Shown here piece by piece: positions 6,980-43,950 of a DNA stretch of 63,551 nt. The notes beneath the pieces were generated by a model. The model saw only the letters and a list, made by a program, of their open reading frames with translations. It did no database searches and was not told where the DNA came from. Where the stretch lies: NCBI GenBank assembly GCA_036521275.1, contig DATDIC010000124.1:1-63551 (forward strand), in the 5' to 3' direction. Both the position numbers and the translations under genes were made by a program. The stretch is from Acetobacteraceae bacterium. Lineage in GTDB: Bacteria; Pseudomonadota; Alphaproteobacteria; Acetobacterales; Acetobacteraceae. Every line of letters begins with the position of its first letter. The first letter of the stretch is position 1.

Positions 6980-8167
6980 GTGAGTATCAGGATCACCGAA
7001 AACACCACAGCGCGGCGTCTGCAAGCCTACGATCTGCAGGAGGTGCTTTCGCACGAAGCCGCCGGCGCGGCGTTCGCAGCGATATCCGCGTGCCCGCTCT
7101 ATGCGCGGACGCCGCTGCGCCGTCTCGACCGCGTCGCTGCTTCAAGCCGCGTGGCGAATGTGTGGTACAAGGACGAGGCGGATCGGTTCGGGCTGGGCAG
7201 CTTCAAGGCACTCGGCGGCGCCTATGCTGTCGCTCGGCTGCTGCAGCACAAGCTGGCACAACGCCTCGGCCGAGATCTGGGATTGCCGGAGCTGGTCCAA
7301 GGCAACCTGCGCCAACAGACGCAACAGATCACCGTCACCTGCGCGACCGATGGCAATCACGGACGCTCCGTCGCCGCCGGTGCGCGTATTTTCGGCTGCC
7401 GCTGCGTGATCTTCCTGCACGCGGAGGTCAGCCAGGGACGAGAGGACGCGATCCGCGCCTATGGCGCGGACATCGAGCGCATCGCCGGCAATTATGACGA
7501 GTCCGTGCTGGCAGCCTCGCGGGCAGCCGAACGGAACGGCTGGGACGTTGTTTCTGATACGTCCTGGCCCGGCTACGAATCAGTCCCCCGCGACGTGATG
7601 CAGGGCTATACCGTCATGCTCATCGAGACGCTTCAGCAGCTTCAGGAACATGGCGCATCGCGGCCCACGCATGTGTTCGTCCAGGGCGGCGTCGGCGGCC
7701 TGGCAGCAGCGGTGTGCGCGCATCTGTGGGAAGCGATGGGCACCGCCGCGCCGATCACGACGGTGGTCGAGCCGGAGCGCGCGGACTGCCTGTTTCAATC
7801 GGCGCTGGCCGGCCAGCCCACGCCCGCGTCCGGCGATCTCTCCACCGTCATGGCGGGGTTGTCGTGCGGCGAAGTATCCAGCGAGGCATGGCGTGTCCTG
7901 AGCCGCGGCGCCCGGTTCTTCCTGACGATCGACGATGCGATGGCGATCGAGGCGATGCGCCTGCTCGCCCAGTGCGGCGCAAGCGAACAACCGATCATCG
8001 CCGGCGAATCCGCCACGGCCGGGCTCGCCGCACTGATCGCCACCGCGGCGGATCCCGCCCTGCGGCGGCAGATCGAGCTCACCCCCGATTCGTCCGTGCT
8101 GCTGATCGGCAGCGAGGGCGCGACCGATCCCGAGCTCTACCGCAAGCTTGTGGGCCAAGCCGCCTGA
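6980..8167 (+). CDS. diaminopropionate ammonia-lyase-like PLP-dependent enzyme
   Basis: ORF 6944..8167, with the start placed at GTG 6980, which is preceded by GGAGGA. PLP-lysine motif GSFKALGGAY and glycine loop GGVGGLAAAV, as in the DpaL/YgeX family. Confidence 0.8.
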   Translation: MSIRITENTTARRLQAYDLQEVLSHEAAGAAFAAISACPLYARTPLRRLDRVAASSRVANVWYKDEADRFGLGSFKALGGAYAVARLLQHKLAQRLGRDLGLPELVQGNLRQQTQQITVTCATDGNHGRSVAAGARIFGCRCVIFLHAEVSQGREDAIRAYGADIERIAGNYDESVLAASRAAERNGWDVVSDTSWPGYESVPRDVMQGYTVMLIETLQQLQEHGASRPTHVFVQGGVGGLAAAVCAHLWEAMGTAAPITTVVEPERADCLFQSALAGQPTPASGDLSTVMAGLSCGEVSSEAWRVLSRGARFFLTIDDAMAIEAMRLLAQCGASEQPIIAGESATAGLAALIATAADPALRRQIELTPDSSVLLIGSEGATDPELYRKLVGQAA

Positions 8168-8173
8168 CCAGCC

Positions 8174-8980
8174 TTATCCGGCGCCACCACCGCCTTCGCG
8201 TGCGCCATTGCGCAGCAGGTCGATATCGAACCGCACGCAGTCGCCGCGATAGACCACCTCCGCCACATAGGTCACCACGCCCTGCTGGTTGCGGACCAGG
8301 TAGCGCGCCTCCGCCGTCGGCGCGTTCAGCGGAATGCGCAGCCGCTCGCTGGTGTCCGGATGGGCGCTGCCGACGACGACCGTGAGCTGCGCATGATCGA
8401 CGTTCTCGCGCTCAAGCTCCAACAGCAGCGGCAGCGCAGTGCGCGAACGGAAATCCTCGGGAGACCGCTCAAAGATCGCGCGTTCCACGTGTACGCTGGC
8501 GACCGCAAAGGGCTCCCCGGCCCGGAACTGCACGCTGAGCAGGTATTGGTATTCGGCCGCCGCCTTGCCGTCGTCGGGGAACAGCCGCGGCAGCGGCGGC
8601 GGATTCTTCACCGCCAGGAAACGCGGAACATGGCCGCTGATCGACTGGGCGAGCGAATCGATATCGATGGTCAGATGCAACCAGCGGCGCTCCGGCATGT
8701 GCGGCGTGACGAACGTGCCGCGACCTTGCTGGCGATGGACGAGTCCTTCTTTCTCCAGCAGTTCGACGGCCTGGCGCACGGTCACCCGCGCCACGCCGAA
8801 TTCCTGCTCCAGCTCCTCCTGCGTCGGCATCTTCTGTCCGGCCCGGAAATGACCGTCGGCGATGCGATTGCGCAGCAACGTTGCAACCTGGATATAGAGC
8901 GGGATCGGGCTGCGCCTGAACATGTGCAGGCGGCTTTCGGGCGCCTGCCGGCGTGAGCGCTCTTTCATTGGCACAGTCAT
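8174..8980 (-). CDS. GntR-family transcriptional regulator, HutC/UTRA subfamily
   Basis: 268-aa ORF. N-terminal wHTH (LPTQEELEQEFGVARVTVRQAVELLEKEGLV) and a C-terminal UTRA-like effector domain. Divergent from the 9190 operon. Confidence 0.88.
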   Translation of the reverse strand: MTVPMKERSRRQAPESRLHMFRRSPIPLYIQVATLLRNRIADGHFRAGQKMPTQEELEQEFGVARVTVRQAVELLEKEGLVHRQQGRGTFVTPHMPERRWLHLTIDIDSLAQSISGHVPRFLAVKNPPPLPRLFPDDGKAAAEYQYLLSVQFRAGEPFAVASVHVERAIFERSPEDFRSRTALPLLLELERENVDHAQLTVVVGSAHPDTSERLRIPLNAPTAEARYLVRNQQGVVTYVAEVVYRGDCVRFDIDLLRNGAREGGGGAG

Positions 8981-9088
8981 GCTGCGAATCTTCCCCCGGG
9001 TCCCCGCCTGAGCCGACGCACCGCCGACGCTCTACCTCAATCGGCACCGCTACAGGAAGTCTGGCGGCTGCCGGCTGCGGCGGCGGGC

Positions 9089-9189: not shown

Positions 9190-10464
9190 ATGACATCCGA
9201 CCTCCGCCGGAACGTACTCGGCCAGATCGAGGCGGATACCGACAAGGCGATCAAGTTCCTTCAGCAGATGGTTTCAATCCCCAGCGTCACCGGCGATGAG
9301 GCTGCCGTTCAGCGCTTTCTCGCCGATTACATGAACCGGATGGGGCTGACCGTGGACCAGTGGGAAACCGACTGGGAACAGCTCAAGCAACATCCGGGAT
9401 ACCGCCCGGTCGAGCGCGGCTATGAAGGGCGGCCCAATCTCGTCGCCACCTGGAAAGGCACCGGCGGCGGTAGGTCGCTCCTGTTGAACGGCCACTCCGA
9501 CGTGATCCCCGTCGGCAACGGCGAAGGATGGAGCGACAATCCGTGGTCCGCCGCGATCAAGGACGGCCGCATCTATGGACGCGGCGCCGCCGACATGAAA
9601 AGCGGCGTTGCCAGCCACATCATGGCGGTCGCCAGCCTGACGGCGCTCGGCGTCAAGCCAAAGGGCGACGTCTATATCAACATCGTCATCGACGAGGAGG
9701 TCAGCGGCCACGGCACGCTGGACACCGTGATCCGCGGCTACAAGGCCGACGCCGGCATCTCCGGCGAAACCAGCGACCTGGCGATCCAGCCGGCCTGCAT
9801 CGGACGCATCTGGTTCGAGATCGAGATCAGCGGCAAGGCCGCGGGCATCCAGCGGCGCTACGAAGGCGTCAGCGGCATCGAACTCGGCTACAAGATCGCC
9901 AAGGCGGTGGCGGCGCTCGAAGCCGAACGCGTGGCCACGGTGAAGCATCCGCTCTATCCCAGCGCGATCGACGCCATCCCCTGTGCGATCGGCAGCTTCC
10001 AGGCCGGCAATTACCCAAGCGCCTTCCCAGCCACCTGTCTTCTGAAAGGCAGCATCGCCACGGTCCCGGGCGAGGACCACGAAGGCGTCAAGCGGCGGCT
10101 GGTCGATTGGGTCGCGCGCGCCGCGGCCGAAGACCCCTGGATGAAGCTGCACCCGCCGAAAGTCCGTTTCGTCGGCTACGATGCGCAGGCATCGGAAATA
10201 CCCCGCGGTCACCCGATCACCGAAACGGTGTCCAGAGCGTACCGGGAGGTCACCGGACGCGACCCGGCGATCAGCGGCCGTCAGGGCGCGGCCGATACCA
10301 GGTTCCTGAACCAGTACGGCAACACGCCGACCGTGATCTTCGGCCCGGGCTCGACCGCCGTGATGCATTCCGACGACGAGTACGTGGCGATCGACGACTA
10401 CATCACCGCCATCAAGGTTATGGCTCTCAGCATCTGCGACTGGTGTGGGACCGAGACGACATAG
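9190..10464 (+). CDS. ArgE/DapE/ACY1-family M20 deacylase
   Basis: 424-aa ORF with M20 metal-binding motifs (LLLNGHSDVIPVG, GRGAADMKSG, DEEVSGHG). Confidence 0.88.
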   Translation: MTSDLRRNVLGQIEADTDKAIKFLQQMVSIPSVTGDEAAVQRFLADYMNRMGLTVDQWETDWEQLKQHPGYRPVERGYEGRPNLVATWKGTGGGRSLLLNGHSDVIPVGNGEGWSDNPWSAAIKDGRIYGRGAADMKSGVASHIMAVASLTALGVKPKGDVYINIVIDEEVSGHGTLDTVIRGYKADAGISGETSDLAIQPACIGRIWFEIEISGKAAGIQRRYEGVSGIELGYKIAKAVAALEAERVATVKHPLYPSAIDAIPCAIGSFQAGNYPSAFPATCLLKGSIATVPGEDHEGVKRRLVDWVARAAAEDPWMKLHPPKVRFVGYDAQASEIPRGHPITETVSRAYREVTGRDPAISGRQGAADTRFLNQYGNTPTVIFGPGSTAVMHSDDEYVAIDDYITAIKVMALSICDWCGTETT

Positions 10465-12343: not shown

Positions 12344-14442
12344 ACGCACAGCCTCCACGCCTTTCGGTCCGGGAGATCCTGCAGCCCCGGTCCGTCGCCG
12401 TGTTTGGTGCGTCGGACGACCGCGACAAGTTCGGTGGCCGGATCATGCACTTCCTGGTCCGCCACGGTTTCGCCGGACAGATCGTGCCGATCAATCCGCG
12501 GCCACGGCAGATCCTCGGACGAACCGCATACGCATCGCTTGCCGATGCGCCGATCAAGGCCGAGGTCGCGATCCTTGCAGTGCCGGTGAACCATCTGCTG
12601 GGGGCGGTCGAGCAATGCGCGGCGGCCGGCGTCGGCTGCTGCGTGATCATCGCGACCGGATTTGCCGAAGCCAACGAAGCCGGCGCCGCACTGCAGCAGC
12701 GCATACTTGATGTCGCGCTGCCGGCGGGCATGCGGATCATCGGGCCGAACTGCATGGGGCTGATCAATCCGGGATGGCGGCTCGCGCTCTGTTCCTCCGT
12801 CGTGCTCGATAGCAGCGAGTTGCTGCTGGGCCACATCGGACTGGTCAGCCAGAGCGGCGCGCTGATGGTGTCGCTGTTCGACCGGGCGGTGTCGAACGGG
12901 ATCGGATTCAGCGCCTGCGTATCGCTCGGGAACCAGTCGGACCTGGAGATCTGCGACTTCCTGGACTATTTCATCGACGATCCCGGCACCGACGCGCTCT
13001 GTGTCTATATCGAGGGATTGCGGGACCCTGCCCGCTTCGTCCGTGCAGCCGCCGCGTGCCGGCGAGCCGGCAAGCCGATGGTGGTGGTCAAGACCGGCAA
13101 GACAAGCGACGGGGTGCGCGCGGCACGCTCCCACACGGCAAGCCTGGCCGGCGATTACGATGCATTCGCCGCGATATGCCGTGCGCATGGTGTCGTCCTC
13201 GCGGACGATCCGGTGACGATGGTGCGGATCGCCGATCTGCTGCTCCGCGAGCCGCTGCCACGGTCGGATGGGATCGGCATCCTGTCCGGCTCCGGCGGCG
13301 GTACCGGGCTGATGGTGGATCGGGTGGTCGGAGCGGGCCTTCGACTGGCGCGCCTGTCGCAGCCGGCGCGCGCCGCGCTGGGCGAATTGTTGCTTCCACC
13401 ACAGGCGGATAATCCGATCGATCTTGGCGGCCGCCTGCCCTCGCAGCCCGACGACATTGCCGCGCCGGCCATGCGCACACTCGCATCCGATCCCGATGTC
13501 GGGCTGTTGCTGCTGTATCTTACGTCGATGCCGTTTTTCGAAGCACGTGCACGAGTCCTGGCCCAAACCGCACTGGAGTCGGGAAAGCCCGTCATCGCCG
13601 TGATGCTGCCCGGCCCGGCCGCGGATCGCCCGCGTGCGGTGCTACGGGAACTCGGCTGCTCGTATTTCGATTCGACGGACGACATGCTGGCGGCCCTGCG
13701 CGGCGTGTACGAATACCGCGCCGGTCTGACAGCGCCGACCATATCGCCGCAGCGCCCCGACGACCTGCCAGCAGGACCTCCGCCCCTGAACGACGTGCCG
13801 GGGCTGGTCGCTGCGTACGGCATCGAGGTCCCGCGCGCGGTCGCTTGCGCGACGCCGCAACAGGCCCAGGCAGCCGCTGTGTCGATCGGGTTTCCGGTCG
13901 TCCTGAAGGGTCTGGTTAGCGGGGTAAGCCATAAGACGGAACTGCAGGCGGTCAAAACCGGGCTGGCCGACACAGCCGCCGTCAACACCGCCTGGAACGA
14001 CATCGCCGCGTCCATCGCGCGGCACGATTTGGCGGACGCGTTCACCGGCTGCCTGGCGCAGGAACAGGCGCCACCAGGACTGGAGCTGATCCTGTCCATC
14101 CGCAACGATCCCCAGTTCGGCCCGTTCGTGCTGGTGGGCGCCGGCGGCACGCTGGTCGAACTGTTGCACGACGTCGCATCAGCCCCGGCGCCGGTTTCGC
14201 GCCCGCAGGCGAGGCGATTGGTAAACGGCTTGCGTTGCGCCAGGCTGCTGGATTCCTGGCGCGGCGGACCGCCGCGCGACGTCGAAGCCGTCATCGACGC
14301 GCTCGAACGGCTGAGCTGGCTGGCGCACGACCTGGGCAAGCGCCTGGTGGACCTGGAGATCAACCCGCTGATAGCGGGAGAGGCCGGCGCGGGCGTACGT
14401 GCCGTGGACATACGCGCAGAGTGGGCGGAGTCATCATCATGA
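12340..14442 (+). CDS. ADP/NDP-forming acyl-CoA synthetase (acetate--CoA ligase family, fused alpha/beta)
   Basis: 700-aa ORF whose GTG start overlaps the previous stop (GTGA). N-terminal CoA-binding domain (SVAVFGASDDRDKFGG), a CoA-ligase domain and a C-terminal ATP-grasp domain. Confidence 0.85.
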   Translation: MNAQPPRLSVREILQPRSVAVFGASDDRDKFGGRIMHFLVRHGFAGQIVPINPRPRQILGRTAYASLADAPIKAEVAILAVPVNHLLGAVEQCAAAGVGCCVIIATGFAEANEAGAALQQRILDVALPAGMRIIGPNCMGLINPGWRLALCSSVVLDSSELLLGHIGLVSQSGALMVSLFDRAVSNGIGFSACVSLGNQSDLEICDFLDYFIDDPGTDALCVYIEGLRDPARFVRAAAACRRAGKPMVVVKTGKTSDGVRAARSHTASLAGDYDAFAAICRAHGVVLADDPVTMVRIADLLLREPLPRSDGIGILSGSGGGTGLMVDRVVGAGLRLARLSQPARAALGELLLPPQADNPIDLGGRLPSQPDDIAAPAMRTLASDPDVGLLLLYLTSMPFFEARARVLAQTALESGKPVIAVMLPGPAADRPRAVLRELGCSYFDSTDDMLAALRGVYEYRAGLTAPTISPQRPDDLPAGPPPLNDVPGLVAAYGIEVPRAVACATPQQAQAAAVSIGFPVVLKGLVSGVSHKTELQAVKTGLADTAAVNTAWNDIAASIARHDLADAFTGCLAQEQAPPGLELILSIRNDPQFGPFVLVGAGGTLVELLHDVASAPAPVSRPQARRLVNGLRCARLLDSWRGGPPRDVEAVIDALERLSWLAHDLGKRLVDLEINPLIAGEAGAGVRAVDIRAEWAESSS

Positions 14443-37298: not shown

Positions 37299-38402
37299 GT
37301 GAGCCATAACAGCTTCGGACACCTGTTCCGCGTCACCACCTGGGGCGAGAGCCACGGCCTCGCGATTGGCTGCGTGGTGGATGGCTGTCCGCCCCGCATC
37401 AAGCTGACCGAGTCGGATATCCAGCCCTGGCTGGATCGCCGCCGCCCCGGCCAGTCGCGCTTCACCACGCAGCGACAGGAGCCCGACCAGGTACGCATCC
37501 TGTCCGGCGTGTTTGACGGTGTGACCACCGGCACGCCGATCGCCCTGGTGATAGAGAACGTCGATCAGCGATCCCGCGATTATGGCGAGATCGCCGCCAA
37601 GTTCCGGCCAGGGCATGCCGACCTGACCTATGAGCTGAAATACGGCATCCGCGACTATCGCGGCGGCGGCCGATCCTCGGCACGCGAAACGGCTATGCGC
37701 GTCGCCGCCGGCGCGGTTGCACGCAAGGTGCTGGGTGCCGGGGTCCATATCCGCGGCGCATTGGTGCAGATGGGCCCGCACCAGGTCGACCGCGCCCGAT
37801 GGGATTGGGAATCGGTGGATCAGAACCCGTTCTTCTGCCCCGATCCGATCGCCGCAACGGAATGGGAGGGAATCCTTGCCGAGGTCCGCAAACAGGGCTC
37901 GTCGCTCGGGGCCGTGATCGAGGTGGTGGCAGAGGGTGTTCCGCCCGGGCTGGGAGCGCCGGTTTACGCCAAGCTGGACGCGGACATCGCCGCCGCCCTG
38001 ATGTCGATCAATGCCGTGAAAGGGGTGGAGATCGGCGACGGATTTGCCGCCGCTTCGCTGCGCGGGGAGCAGAACGCGGACGAGATGCGCATGGAGCACG
38101 GCGTGGTTGCGTTCGATTCCAACCACGCCGGCGGCATCCTGGGCGGCATCTCCAGCGGGCAGCCGATCGTGGCGCGTTTCGCAGTGAAGCCCACCAGCTC
38201 GATCCTGACCCCGCGGCGCACGGTGAACCGGGCGGGCGAGGAAACCGAGATCACCACCAAGGGCCGCCACGATCCTTGCGTCGGACTCCGTGCCGTGCCG
38301 GTGGGCGAGGCAATGCTGGCCTGCGTGCTGGCGGACCATCTGCTGCGCCATCGCGCCCAGAACCCGGACGCGCCGGAGACAGCGCGGTTGCCGCGCAATT
38401 AG
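37299..38402 (+). CDS. aroC: chorismate synthase
   Basis: GTG 37299 gives the canonical N-terminus [19 protein letters not shown]. Motif [11 protein letters not shown] is present. Confidence 0.93.
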
Positions 38403-40552
38403 GGCGACGCGCGACTGGCCGAAACATCGGGCGCCAGCAGCAGGCCGGCGAATGCAGCGCCTACGCGTGGCGCCGGACCATGAGCGCCAAGATCGTCCCG
38501 GGCGACGACGACGGAAACCAGCAAGAAGCCACCCTGAAGCTGCCCTACAACCGCGATGTGATAGGCACGGTTGTCGCTGTCGGTCGCCGTCGCCTGAACG
38601 CGCATGACCTGAGCCGTCCCGGACCTCGTCGAGTTCTCCGGCTGCTCCGTCCCCAGACTGAGATGCAGCATCCGGCTCAGCGAATCGCGCACCAGTTCTT
38701 CGACATTCGCCAACGAGCCCGCCGCACGTCCGATCAGCGCGATGTGCAATCCCGGTGCGTCCGGCGACACGAACAGGCACGCACCTTTATCCTCCGGACG
38801 GAGTTCGTGCTCCATTCCCCGTGGTATCAAAGCGATGTTGCCGGACGGAACCTGGGCCCAGACATCATATTGCACGTTGCTGATCGAATCGACTGAAACC
38901 TTCGTGGCATCCTGCACGGCGGCGGCCACCATCTTCGCCTCGGAATCGGCGGTCGCCAGCGGGCCGAGCCTAGGCACATCCGACATCAGCAGCATCGACC
39001 GGCCGCAGTGCAGGACGGTGTAGAATTTGGCACCGGTCGTCGGTGCCGTCTCGTCGCTCGCTTCCTCGTCCGACGGCGGGGTCTCTATATCGGTGGCCTG
39101 CGTCTGATCGGGTGGTGGAAAGCTCGACAGATCGAGTGCAACCAGCATGCGTGCCAGATCCAGGCGGGCCGCGGGCGAAAGCTGCTCGGCAGGCGTTTGC
39201 ACCAGGACACCCTCGGCAACGCTGACCTGCCGCCCATCCAGGTCCGCACGAAACAGGCGCGCGCCGCCGCGATCTTGCAATACAGCGTGATGGATCAGCG
39301 CGCCGTTGGCAACGAACTGACCTCGCCGATCGAGCAGGCGCCAGACAGGATGCTTTGGCGACCCGTCCGGGCGGCCAAACAGCCCGACGGCCTGCGATTT
39401 CGTGCGGCTGACGGCGAGCGCCCATTCCGGCGTGTCCGGATCGGCTGGCACCCGGTCCAGGCGGATCAACAGGCTTGCGTTGGGCTGCTGCGCATCCGCC
39501 CGACAGAATGAATCGGCAGGCTGCAGACTGAGTTCGGCCGGCAGGACGATGGCAGCACCAGATTGGGGTTCGACCCAAACCTGATAGGGCAGTGCCGCGA
39601 GGTCCGCGAGGCTCACCTGCTCATCCTGCGCGACCTGTTGGACGGCGTTCCTGGTGTCGACCGTCACCGCGAGCTGGGAAAGGGTACGCGCCCCGCGCGA
39701 CGTCAGGCCCAGCTTGCCGCACATCGTGGTTGGCGGGGCGCTGGGATGGACCGCCCCCTGGGCGGGCGCGCTCTGCATCGCATAAGCGAACAGCGAGCCG
39801 GCCATGCCCCCCGAGGGGAGGCTGTCGGCGGAGCTGAGAAGCTGCTCGAGGTAGAAACCACGCATGGCCCAACTGATCGAGGCAGCGCCCTGCTGCAGCC
39901 CCCCCGACCCGATTCCAACCACCCGGCCTGTTGCATCCACCACTGGTGCGCCGGAATCGCCCGGTTGCAGCGGCCCGCTCAGGTGCAGCACCTGGCTGGA
40001 CAAGTCGGGGAAATGCAGCGCCTGAAGTTGCGATCGTGCGGTGTCATCCAGCGTCGAGCTGAGCTGCGGGAACAGGTCGTTGGCGAAGGTCACCTGAAGT
40101 CGCGTGTCGGTGGGTGCCTCTATCCCGAGCGGAAACCCCCACGCCTCCACCCATTGCTCGGGACCCACCGGCTGCTCGGCGAGCTTCAGCGGCGGTGCGT
40201 CCGGCGGGTCGGTCACCGACAGCAGAACAAGGTCGGCCGAGCGCAGGACCTTGCTGACGGTCGCGTCACGCACGGTCTGCGTGATCGTGCTGCCGTTGCG
40301 GACGAAATAAAGCACGCTGAACGGCGGTTGGCAGCCGACGACCACATGCATGTCGGTCACCACCTGCCGCTCCGGACCCCAGACGAAGCCGGTGGCGACA
40401 CGGCTTTCGTTTGCCTGGCCGCACAGGCTGATCACCTTTACCAACGACGGCAAAATCCTGGCGCCGAGACCGCCCGACGGCTGATCATCGGCCGCGACCG
40501 GGCTGCCGACCGCCCACACGCAGGCGACGAGAATGATGGTCAGCCCGCGCAT
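38399..40552 (-). CDS. secreted trypsin-like (S1 family) serine protease with a large duplicated C-terminal region of unknown function
   Basis: 717-aa ORF with signal peptide [23 protein letters not shown]. Triad contexts TDMHVV (H69), SADLVLL (D107) and GDSGAP (S200). I cannot assign residues ~240-717 to any family. Confidence 0.8.
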
Positions 40553-41106
40553 TTCAGGCCTTTCATCAGCATCGCCTCCGGATCGGCGGACTTCGCCGAG
40601 GCGTCGGCCAACGCGGTATAGGCCGGGAACCGTCTGACGATGGCAAGCTGCTGGTCAACATCCTTGACCAGCCCAATGAGGTTGCAGATCGAGCGTGTAT
40701 CGGTCGCATAAAGTGCGCTCGCCTGCTGCTTCGCTTCCGGCGCTTCGGTGATAGTAAGGCCGGCGGGTTTCACGCCCAGCCGAAGAAAGGCGACATATGC
40801 CAGCGCGTCGTCCTTGGCGTATCCGGCCGCCTGCCATTGGGCGACTTCGTCCTTGACGCTGGGCGCAAGCAGCGACCCGCCACGGACAAGAAGACCGAGC
40901 GTGACCCCAACGACGCACAGGAAGCCGAACGCACCGATGCGCCAGGACTGACCCGATTCGCCCTGCTTCAGTCCGAGTACCGCGCCGAGCAGCCCGGTGA
41001 GGGCGACCACCACCCCTTGCACGACCGGCGATACCGACAAGCCGAGCAAGTAGCCGAGCAACAGACCGATACCGCCGCCCGCAACGATATCGGCGACAAT
41101 CGGCAT
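40540..41106 (-). CDS. membrane protein of unknown function (3 predicted TM helices plus soluble C-terminal domain)
   Basis: 188-aa ORF with genome-typical GC3. Hydrophobic segments span aa ~5-75. 13-nt overlap with the protease gene. Confidence 0.65.
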   Translation of the reverse strand: MPIVADIVAGGGIGLLLGYLLGLSVSPVVQGVVVALTGLLGAVLGLKQGESGQSWRIGAFGFLCVVGVTLGLLVRGGSLLAPSVKDEVAQWQAAGYAKDDALAYVAFLRLGVKPAGLTITEAPEAKQQASALYATDTRSICNLIGLVKDVDQQLAIVRRFPAYTALADASAKSADPEAMLMKGLKCAG

Positions 41107-41271
41107 CGTTCAGGTAACAGGGGGCTGCGGCGCCCGGGCCTCGACGACCCGCGGGACAAATCCAATCATCAGCATCGCTCGCTTGTTCCCGACCGCAGTA
41201 ACCTCACCTGTTCGACGGCCCGAGCCTGGAACTCGGTCCCGCCAATCTCGGACTGTTCGCGGCGCCGCAGC

Positions 41272-41589
41272 TCAATCCCCGCCCAGTGCCGCCTCCACCG
41301 TCCGCACCGCCTGCAGCGGCAGCGCCGCGCGCCCCACCACCTGGCCGCCGACACACGCCAGCCAGTCCGCCCCGTCCGGCGGTTTCGGGCGCAACTCGAT
41401 CACCTTGGCGTCATCATCCAGCGCCACCGCCCGATATTGCCGCCAGTTCGCCCACAGCGGTCCCGGCAAACGAACGACGCGGGCAATCGCCTTGCCCGCG
41501 TCGTCCAAACCGATCCATTCGAGGGCGCGGGAGACACCCGCCCCTTTGTCCGTGCGACCCCGCGTCCAGTGAAGGCGGGGCGCTGCCAT
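41272..41589 (-). CDS. hypothetical soluble protein (105 aa)
   Basis: ORF with high GC3 codon usage. Starts 35 nt after the EF-G stop on the same strand. I recognise no family. Confidence 0.5.
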   Translation of the reverse strand: MAAPRLHWTRGRTDKGAGVSRALEWIGLDDAGKAIARVVRLPGPLWANWRQYRAVALDDDAKVIELRPKPPDGADWLACVGGQVVGRAALPLQAVRTVEAALGGD

Positions 41590-41623: not shown

Positions 41624-43723
41624 TCAGGCGCTTTTCGCCATGATTTCATCGGCGATATTGCGTGGCACCGGGTCGTAATGATGGAACTGCATCGTGAACG
41701 AGGCGCGTCCCTTGGTCATGCTGCGCAGATCCGAAATATACCCGAACATCTCCTTCAGGGGAACATGGGCCCGGACGATGACCGTGGACCCGGAACTCTC
41801 CTGGTTCTGGATCATCCCGCGCCGACGGTTAATATCTCCCACCACGTCGCCGACGTGATCCTGCGGCGTGGTGACCTCCACGTCCATGATCGGCTCCAGG
41901 ATGATCGGGCCGGCCTTCTTCATGCCGTCCCGGAAGCAGGCCTTGGCGGCAATCTCGAACGCCAGCGCGGAGCTGTCCACGTCGTGGTACTTGCCGTCGA
42001 TCAGCGTGTATTTGAAATCCACCGTCGGGAAGCCCGCCAACACGCCGGTATCCGCTTGCATCCGGATGCCCTTTTCCACCGCCGGGATGTACTCCCGCGG
42101 CACCGAGCCGCCGACCACGTCGTTCTCGAACACCACCCCGCCGTTCCGCTCCTGCGGCTCGAAGGTGATCTTCACCTCGGCGTACTGACCGGACCCGCCG
42201 GTCTGTTTTCGGTGGGTGTAGGTCTCGGTGTGGGGCCGGGTAATGGTCTCCCGATAGGCCACCTGCGGCGCACCGATATTCGCCTCCACCCCGTATTCGC
42301 GCCGCAGCCGGTCGATGATGATCTCCAGGTGCAGCTCGCCCATGCCCGACAGAATGGTCTGCCCGGACTCCTGGTCGGTGCGCAGCCGCAGGCTGGGGTC
42401 CTCACCGGCCAGCTTCTGCAGGCCGAGGCTCATTTTCTCGATCGACTCCTTGGTTTTCGGCTCGACCGAGATGTCGATCACCGGCACCGGGAACGCCATT
42501 CGCTCCAGCACGACCGGATCCTGCGCCGATGCCAAAGTGTCGCCGGTACCGGTATCCTTCAGCCCGACGAAGGCGGCGATGTCACCGGCCGAAACTTCCT
42601 TGATCTCCTGGCGCTTGTCCGCGTGCATCTGGAACATGCGCCCGATCCGCTCGCGATGCTCCCGGGTGGTGTTCTGCACCATGTCCCCGGACTTCAGCGT
42701 GCCGGCATAGACGCGCACGAACGTCAGGGTGCCGTACTTGTCGTTGATGATCTTGAACGCCAGCCCGGCAAACGGTGCGGCCGGATCTGCCTTGATGCGC
42801 CGACGGTCGGAATGCTCCCCGTCCTCCTCGCCTTCGCCGGCCGCCACGCTGATGCCCGGCACGTCGAGCGGGCTGGGCAGATAGTCGATGACCGCGTCCA
42901 GCAGCGGCTGCACGCCCTTGTTCTTGAACGCGGTGCCGCACAGCACCGGGCGGAACGCGCCGCTGATGGTGCCGGTCTTGATACAGCGCTTCAGCGTGTC
43001 TTCCGAGACGTCGCCCTTGTCGAAATACTCCTCCATGGCGGCGTCATCGACCGACAGCGCCGTGTCCAGCAGCACCTGGCGGTACTCCCGGGCACGCTCG
43101 ATCAGATCGGCCGGGATCTCCTCGTCGTGGAATTTCGCACCCAGCTCGCCGCCTTCCCAGACAATGGCCTTCATCCGCACCAGGTCGACGACCCCGATAA
43201 ACTTGTCCTCGATCCCGATCGGCAGTTGCAGCGGCAGCGCGACGATATCCAGCTTCTCTTTCAGCGTGCCCACCGCGCGGTAGAAATCGGCGCCGGTGCG
43301 ATCCAGCTTGTTGATGAAGATGATGCGCGGCACGTTGTAGCGGTCGGCCAGGCGCCAGTTGGTTTCCGATTGCGGCTGCACGCCGGCCACGCCCTCGATA
43401 ATGAATATCGCGCCGTCCAGAACACGCAGGCTGCGATTCACTTCGATGTTGAAATCGATATGGCCCGGCGTATCGATGATGTTGATGCGGTGGTCCTTCC
43501 ACTCGCACGTCACCGCGGCGGACGTGATGGTGATCCCCCGCTCCCGCTCCTGCTCCATGTAGTCGGTCGTGGTATTGCCGTCGTGCACCTCACCGATCTT
43601 ATGCGACATGCCGGTGTAATAGAGGATGCGCTCCGTCGTGGTCGTCTTGCCGGCATCGATATGCGCCGTGATGCCGATATTGCGGATACGCGCGAGGCCG
43701 GTGTGAGGGTCCTGGGCAGGCAT
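41624..43723 (-). CDS. fusA: elongation factor G family GTPase located outside a str operon (probable paralogue)
   Basis: G motifs [14 protein letters not shown] and NKLD, with full EF-G domain order. Start placed at the second ATG (43723), which is preceded by GGAG. The ORF extends to 43735. Confidence 0.92.
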
Positions 43724-43950
43724 AGGGGTCTCCATATATCACGACGGGCGCCGCAGGGTCCCCATCACCTCGATGAGCCCCCGCGCGCCCGCGGATGTCC
43801 GGCCGCGACAGGCCGGCTTCGTCCGCGGCTCATGTGCGTTAACAGAGCGCGATTTGCAAGCACCGAATAGTGAACATTGGGCTGACCCGACGCCGTTCCC
43901 CTTCACGCTTTGTCACGTTCGGCAACACACGAAGGCGGTAAACTGGCGGC

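Follow-up and report, generated by a model that had tools for sequence, protein, structure and literature searches.

On its minus strand, the 63,551-nucleotide (nt) contig DATDIC010000124.1 (assembly GCA_036521275.1, from an Acetobacteraceae bacterium; "the window" below means this whole stretch) carries a two-gene cassette that is self-contained and independent of the surrounding genes. Gene A (40540-41106) encodes a 188-amino-acid (aa) protein with three predicted transmembrane (TM) helices, and gene B (38399-40552, the whole open reading frame (ORF) including its stop codon) encodes a putatively secreted 717-aa serine protease with a duplicated C-terminal region. An earlier note, made from the sequence of the window alone, had described these two genes together with a 105-aa gene as an uncharacterised, envelope-associated proteolytic module of three genes. 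The module itself stood up, in the form of a predicted secreted protease of the S1 fold with a coupled three-TM partner and a duplicated tail; its third member did not, as all three genes are found together only in the window and a close relative (locus L010). The descriptive core of this account is very likely correct. The best explanation of the cassette as a whole, a tethered periplasmic protease with PsbP-like recognition domains, is put forward tentatively, at just short of even confidence.

Conservation of the gene pair

A homologue of gene A lies directly upstream of the protease gene in eight of the nine loci recovered from genomes, and the pair is also present in the metagenome loci L010, L011-13, and L014. 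It was likewise found at the most distant gene A homologues, which were looked up independently (L018-19, L020-21, and L022; 30-42% identity, with single-domain proteases), and beside single-domain proteases identified with a C-terminal profile (L025-26 and L027; see below). Every locus with enough flanking sequence (approx. 16 distinct loci) has a gene A homologue directly before a Trypsin_2 protease, and the pairing reaches gene A homologues of 28-35% identity; the pair is not confined to very close relatives. The neighbouring genes differ at nearly every one of these loci. Moreover, the identity of gene A homologues correlates with that of the protease domains (r = 0.95 over 14 pairs, a relation confounded by phylogeny), which shows, as far as sequence identity can with that confounding, that A and the protease are co-inherited.

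The stop codon of A and the start codon of the protease gene usually overlap by 4, 10, 13, or 16 nt, and L022 has a 26-nt gap. In the window, the 13-nt overlap that had been noted earlier is present at 40540-40552; its letters, AAATGCGCGGGCTGA, are read as ...KCAG-stop in one frame and as MRGL... in the other, and a Shine-Dalgarno-like GAAAGG motif occupies the positions 7-12 nt before the gene B ATG. Translational coupling of the two genes, which had been suggested from this overlap, is in line with the similar overlaps (4-16 nt) at almost every locus.

The ninth genome locus (L008) has neither an intact protease ORF nor a partner gene upstream. A protease remnant at positions 8001-9062 of this locus is recovered by tblastn as segments in three frames, with aa approx. 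329-570 missing, so that the gene is both frameshifted and internally deleted; this reflects either decay of the cassette in that lineage or errors in a long-read assembly. At two further loci, the cassette is directly preceded by a gene for a protein with Glyco_hydro_19 and PG_binding_1 domains (L011, 6460-7266) or for a FemAB-like protein (L014, 6164-7321). As a clue to the substrate, these peptidoglycan-related genes, which are inconsistent across loci, give a weak hint.

The protease and its duplicated C-terminal region

By its sequence, gene B encodes a catalytically intact serine protease of the S1/chymotrypsin fold. Its catalytic domain (aa 22-262, 39767-40489) matches Pfam Trypsin_2 (PF13365) over aa 53-214 with an E value of 1.2e-18 and 68.7 bits against a cut-off of 27.6, covering the model completely (1-144 of 144). 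The triad that had been proposed earlier from short sequence contexts, H69 (TDMHVV, 40346-40348), D107 (ADLVLL, 40232-40234), and S200 (GDSGAP, 39953-39955), agrees with this match and is invariant in an alignment of 17 homologues with 30-80% identity to the window protein; the same alignment shows C44 and C74 of the catalytic domain to be invariant. Distant single-domain relatives keep the serine of the triad even where the preceding aspartate varies. As the S1 position has no Asp, the enzyme would be expected to prefer an aliphatic P1 residue. The ratio of nonsynonymous to synonymous substitution rates (dN/dS; here and below computed against L010, a relative with 80-100% identity) is 0.10 for the catalytic domain, which together with the invariant triad argues for an active enzyme.

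The N-terminus of the protein (aa 1-21, 40490-40552) resembles a Sec signal peptide, with MR followed by a hydrophobic core and P18-V-A-A/DD. This rule-based prediction from sequence and alignment fits a type-I signal peptide cleaved at V19-A20-A21/D22 by the (-3,-1) rule, in keeping with the signal peptide that the earlier note had assigned, and a signal-peptide-like N-terminus is found in all aligned homologues. Because of these N-termini and the conserved cysteine pairs, the protease is probably exported to the periplasm. A lipoprotein was also considered and rejected, as the lipobox-like LVAC stretch at aa 8-11 is not conserved in homologues.

The remainder of the protein, aa approx. 262-717, matches no Pfam family (E <= 1) and no NCBIfam family, and a sequence-profile search of the PDB with this region gave no match. 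It consists of C-terminal domain 1 (aa 270-482, 39107-39745), an acidic Pro/Thr-rich linker (aa 483-508, 39029-39106) that is predicted to be disordered, and C-terminal domain 2 (aa 509-717, 38402-39028), a diverged second copy. The internal duplication had been proposed by eye. Pairwise BLASTP of half against half is marginal (E 3e-4, 28% identity over 94 aa); profile-profile comparison with hhalign, based on the 17-sequence alignment, bears the duplication out with a probability of 96% and an E value of 1.8e-9 over 93 columns. In particular, the invariant residues C278, W326, and C350 of domain 1 stand in register with C516, W565, and C592 of domain 2.

The region of aa 262-717 was modelled with AlphaFold2 (AF2) from an alignment of 14 sequences. 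The model has a mean predicted local distance difference test score (pLDDT) of 82.9 and a predicted template modelling score (pTM) of 0.82 and contains two alike alpha/beta domains (aa approx. 275-475 and 513-715). Residues 220-247 of the model, which correspond to the linker at aa approx. 481-508, have pLDDT values below 50. The pTM of the two-domain model implies a defined, if so far only predicted, arrangement of the two domains relative to each other. A Foldseek search of the PDB placed PsbP/CyanoP at the top (E 1.7e-6, template modelling score (TM-score) 0.57 normalised to the target), followed by Apa, BT_1490, the Eag chaperones SciW and EagT6, PA94, DcrB, and Tsi3. Twenty-two PDB entries matched at E <= 1e-3, mostly PsbP, CyanoP, Apa, and Eag proteins with TM-scores of 0.48-0.58 on the target, and the matches to PsbP-like folds ranged from E 1.7e-6 to 3e-3 with a probability of 1.0; the best matches among viral models were phage lipoproteins. 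Each C-terminal domain is thus predicted to adopt the Mog1/PsbP/DcrB-like fold, an alpha-beta-alpha sandwich. The Pfam models for PsbP, DcrB (DUF1795), and Mog1 give no sequence match at E <= 1. The description of the C-terminal domain as an orphan therefore holds for its sequence, which belongs to no family in the libraries searched, but not for its predicted fold, which is a known one.

Compared with L010, the linker is 93% identical with a dN/dS of 0.055 and so is more conserved than the folded domains that flank it, although this figure covers only 29 codons and may be due to chance.

A word-indexed search of 5.8 billion proteins returned only 17 whole-protein relatives. In a full HMMER search with the C-terminal profile, 214 of 1.84 billion representatives matched at E <= 1e-3. 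Most of these proteins are 470-520 aa long and consist of Trypsin_2 followed by one domain copy. With hmmsearch, it is the domain 1 half that matches most relatives, and the single-domain proteins stop just after an LS(S/T)FP motif, at the position where LSSFPP closes domain 1 in the window protein. The duplication, which had featured in the description of the module, is not a hallmark of the system. The single-domain form would be the ancestral one, and the doubled form is a small subfamily of approx. 10-15 clusters in a family of approx. 200 clusters at 50% identity among the 1.8 billion representatives. Matches of 230-270 aa, which were considered as stand-alone C-terminal domains, proved to be N-terminally truncated gene fragments. 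In the sources, homologues are named "hypothetical protein" or "S1-C subfamily serine protease". The genome matches of the doubled form are all metagenome-assembled genomes (MAGs) labelled Rhodopila, Acetobacteraceae, Alphaproteobacteria, or (uncultured) Proteobacteria, and the recovered genome loci all come from Acetobacteraceae-like or unclassified proteobacterial MAGs.

The membrane partner

Gene A has no Pfam or NCBIfam match, a fold search of the PDB with its AF2 model found no match (best E 3.2), and its profile matched no PDB sequence. Its homologues (n = 41) are likewise free of Pfam domains, and scanning 36 of them one by one yielded only faint Gly-zipper and DUF noise. The AF2 model (pLDDT 78) contains glycine-rich TM helices at aa 2-23, 27-46, and 53-75, as had been anticipated from the hydrophobicity of the protein. 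They are followed by two conserved short helices (aa 84-110) with the invariant residues W91 and G95, the invariant P114, a disordered loop (aa approx. 111-133), and a small helical bundle (aa 134-184); C141 and C186 are invariant, as are R56 and R75, which flank the third TM helix. The topology is most likely N-in/C-out, with a periplasmic tail that is probably stabilised by a disulfide, since the partner protein appears to be exported and since the tail has an invariant cysteine pair, which is kept whatever the register of the overlap with the protease start.

Proposed function of the pair

As a mechanism for the pair, an anchor/adaptor arrangement is favoured, if with some hesitation. The gene A product would be a small inner-membrane protein whose helical tail of approx. 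110 residues faces the periplasm, and gene B, translationally coupled to it, would provide a Sec-exported protease. The PsbP-like domains would act as a non-catalytic module for the recognition of substrates or partners, in the role played by the PDZ domains of HtrA and DegS, and would dock on the periplasmic tail of A to form a roughly 1:1 complex. Through this complex, the protease would stay tethered to the inner membrane on its outer side, as a functional, split analogue of MarP or DegS, and would subject envelope proteins to limited proteolysis. Where the domain is doubled, its two copies would form an intramolecular pseudo-dimer that replaces the homodimer of the single-domain forms. Eag and DcrB proteins are dimers, and on this basis and that of the pTM of 0.82, the modelled tandem form is probably such a pseudo-dimer.

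Several observations point in this direction. The fold matches of the C-terminal domains (PsbP, DcrB, EagT6/SciW, and the immunity protein Tsi3) are protein-binding proteins, and such domains come singly or in pairs, as do the PDZ domains of HtrA proteases; both suggest a binding module. A periplasmic location is suggested by the signal-peptide-like N-termini and by invariant cysteine pairs in the protease, the C-terminal domains, and the tail of A. Other points weigh against the anchor/adaptor arrangement. Nothing independently identifies A as an anchor, because it has no recognisable fold or family, and the invariant arginines on both sides of its third TM helix make the positive-inside rule ambiguous. 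The fold similarity to PsbP is moderate (TM-score 0.57 normalised to the target, 10-16% identity), and tight coupling with a small upstream gene is equally typical of pairs of an inhibitor or antitoxin with an enzyme.

Periplasmic S1 proteases such as HtrA, DegS, and MarP have a central part in stress signalling and in the quality control of the envelope, and their specificity resides in accessory domains and membrane tethers. The gene B family would have PsbP/DcrB-like domains in place of PDZ domains, with membrane attachment moved to a dedicated, coupled glycine-zipper protein. If the adaptor model is true, proteases that work with adaptors gain a new solution based on accessory domains, and two orphan families gain a function. 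Should the model be wrong, the pair would still be a clean two-component system that lends itself to testing; in neither case is it a paradigm shift.

Less likely, and yet the strongest of the competing explanations, is that gene A encodes the substrate, i.e., that the protease clips the loop at aa approx. 111-133 or the C-terminus of the tail upon an envelope cue, as a switch by regulated proteolysis. Cleavage would then alter the state of the glycine-zipper membrane domain, which might be, e.g., a channel or a stress protein. This explanation draws on the low-confidence Pro/Ala-rich loop that, beside an invariant LGVKP motif, separates the tail helices of A from the bundle, on faint matches of some A homologues to Gly-zipper families, and on known examples of site-specific periplasmic cleavage, namely that of RseA by DegS and that of RipA by MarP. 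However, A has almost no cytoplasmic part and so could not relay a signal in the manner of anti-sigma factors, and translational coupling points to a stoichiometric use and not a catalytic one.

It is improbable, moreover, that the two genes form an inhibitor or immunity pair, in which A would be a membrane-bound inhibitor that acts in the producer periplasm on a protease that is harmful to the cell itself or is exported against competitors. A small upstream gene that overlaps the enzyme gene does recall the antitoxin-toxin order, the C-terminal domains evolve at approx. 2.5 times the rate of the catalytic domain (dN/dS 0.25-0.27 vs. 0.10), and their fold neighbours include the immunity protein Tsi3 of the type VI secretion system as well as Eag chaperones. 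However, dN/dS is far below 1 throughout, and no genes for secretion systems, Rhs/PAAR proteins, contact-dependent inhibition, or mobile elements adjoin the pair at any locus examined. The cassette is a single-copy, chromosomal one among housekeeping genes, and the matches to systems in PADLOC stop at the protease domain itself; at the level of domains, this domain matches RT-Protease_XI and Avs1b only, and the 188-aa and 105-aa proteins have no PADLOC match.

A more speculative variant, which we regard as quite improbable, takes its lead from the Eag chaperones, which bind TM helices of effectors (PMC7773334). That paper does not expressly describe the bound helices as glycine-zipper ones, and no such specificity is assumed. 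The PsbP/DcrB-like domains, as a dimer or a tandem pseudo-dimer, might clamp hydrophobic or glycine-rich helices, or the tail, of the partner or of other membrane proteins and feed them to the attached protease. If true, inner-membrane proteins would be surveyed or remodelled from their outer side without ATP, by a mechanism not previously described. For such a device, a connection with acid or envelope stress is conceivable, given that its carriers are Acetobacteraceae-like and that MarP, the nearest relative of the protease, is an acid-resistance factor. The analogy with MarP and RipA (PMC12183614), the Acetobacteraceae-like carriers, and the GH19 and FemAB-like neighbours at L011 and L014 suggest a possible link to the control of cell-wall hydrolases or to acid stress, which is only a lead.

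The 105-aa gene as a companion of EF-G

The remaining member of the proposed trio, the 105-aa gene (41272-41589), is a real gene and a conserved companion of EF-G that lies outside the cassette. It is assigned to EF-G because its homologues follow EF-G where the pair is missing and because other loci with the pair lack it. At L015-17 and L023-24, a homologue lies 13-30 nt after the EF-G gene, with different genes beyond and no TM/protease pair; in turn, none of the 15 other pair-carrying loci has the 105-aa gene. The protein is 100% identical to its L010 counterpart despite approx. 28 synonymous changes (dN/dS 0.01, dS approx. 0.44), whereas the 165-nt spacer that separates it from gene A (41107-41271) loses all similarity after its stop codon, even against L010. 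With 274 homologues at E <= 1e-3, the 105-aa family is also far wider than the pair. That the 105-aa gene forms a three-gene module with A and the protease, possibly linked to EF-G, is therefore most improbable, even though the three genes share a strand and are closely spaced in the window and in L010, and even though read-through transcription is possible in this genome, with no terminator-like site detected between the 105-aa gene and A. In the lineage of the window, the pair just happens to lie between the 105-aa gene and aroC.

The 105-aa protein has no Pfam, NCBIfam, or PDB match, and its family is an undescribed group of EF-G-linked small proteins under extreme purifying selection. In three different genomic settings, a stand-alone EF-G gene is followed after 13-35 nt by a member of 103-106 aa (EF-G and small gene together, besides the window: L010, 4709-7169; L015, 3889-6321; L023, 2692-5101). 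The EF-G linked to this family does not lie in the rpsL-rpsG-fusA-tuf context.

Relation to known proteases

The catalytic domain belongs to a well-known superfamily, and its best sequence neighbour is MarP (Rv3671c) of Mycobacterium, for which a review is available (PMC12183614). The closest curated model is that of MarP (NCBIfam NF033740, E 9.5e-12), and the nearest solved sequences are those of the MarP/Rv3671c protease domain (PDB 3k6y, 3k6z, and 3lt3; E 4e-5). MarP is a membrane-anchored periplasmic serine protease with a disulfide-containing protease domain. Gene B shares with it the chymotrypsin fold and would also share the location on the periplasmic side of the inner membrane, the association with TM helices, and the disulfide in the protease domain. 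However, MarP has four N-terminal TM helices in cis and no C-terminal domain, whereas in the cassette the helices are predicted in a separate, unrelated three-TM protein and the protease appears to have a cleavable signal peptide and one or two PsbP-like domains. Membership of the MarP family was rejected: the score is 44.6 bits against a cut-off of 250, only model positions 191-350 are matched, and the N-terminus is a predicted signal peptide of 21 aa.

HtrA, DegP, DegQ, and DegS (S1C) are similar to gene B in that a periplasmic trypsin-fold protease is followed by one or two C-terminal protein-binding domains. DegS is tethered to the membrane and cleaves a membrane protein, RseA. Unlike these proteases, gene B has no PDZ domain (no Pfam match to PDZ families at E <= 1), has conserved disulfides that HtrA lacks, and comes with a separate, apparently obligatory TM partner without an HtrA equivalent. 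The source annotations as "S1-C subfamily serine protease" would suit an ordinary, stand-alone housekeeping protease of the HtrA/S1-C type that lies next to gene A by chance, but this is scarcely credible in view of the pairing with gene A across divergent loci and of scores of 10.6-21.9 bits for the HtrA, DegP, and DegS models (TIGR02037, NF041521, and NF047968) against cut-offs of 416-650.

The C-terminal domains share their predicted fold with PsbP, CyanoP, DcrB, the Eag/DUF1795 chaperones, Apa, Tsi3, and PA94, and many members of the Mog1/PsbP/DcrB-like group are extracytoplasmic protein-binding modules. They differ from these relatives in having no sequence similarity to them by Pfam, NCBIfam, or PDB profile search. 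A fusion of a PsbP-like fold with a protease is not described in Pfam, NCBIfam, or the literature searched, and a literature search for PsbP-like domains together with periplasmic serine proteases found nothing relevant. Pfam-A (2025), NCBIfam 20, PADLOC, PDB sequences, and the literature searched contain neither this type of accessory domain nor a protease fused to it nor the dedicated partner, and they hold no record of PsbP/DcrB-like domains on a protease in combination with such a partner.

Organisation and selection at the locus

In the window, the cassette is the end of a row of four minus-strand ORFs that begins with the EF-G gene (41624-43735) and continues with the 105-aa gene after 34 nt, the 188-aa gene, and the 717-aa gene; the three same-strand ORFs that had been described at 38399-40552, 40540-41106, and 41272-41589 are all present. 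A DUF1800 gene lies upstream of EF-G in divergent orientation, and on the downstream side the genes for chorismate synthase (aroC) and FabI are convergent on gene B. The GC content is even across the region.

Comparison with L010 confirms that all genes of the region are real and under purifying selection and that the PsbP-like domains evolve fastest. The genes are judged real because their dN/dS values lie between 0.01 and 0.20: in addition to the 105-aa gene, these are 0.04 for EF-G, 0.08 for aroC, 0.09 for gene A, and 0.20 for the whole protease, within which the catalytic domain is at 0.10 and the PsbP-like domains are at 0.25-0.27.

A search of the relevant spacers gave neither a sigma-70-like promoter nor a terminator, no motif upstream of gene A (of the extracytoplasmic function (ECF) type, GGAAC..., or other) is shared across 14 loci, and Rfam has no match anywhere in the window. 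The stop codons of the protease gene and aroC overlap by 4 nt (38399-38402) in convergent orientation, which leaves no space for a terminator. L010 keeps the same convergent overlap (10151-10154), and beyond fabI this close relative carries a MazE-like/PemK toxin-antitoxin pair (12442-13017).

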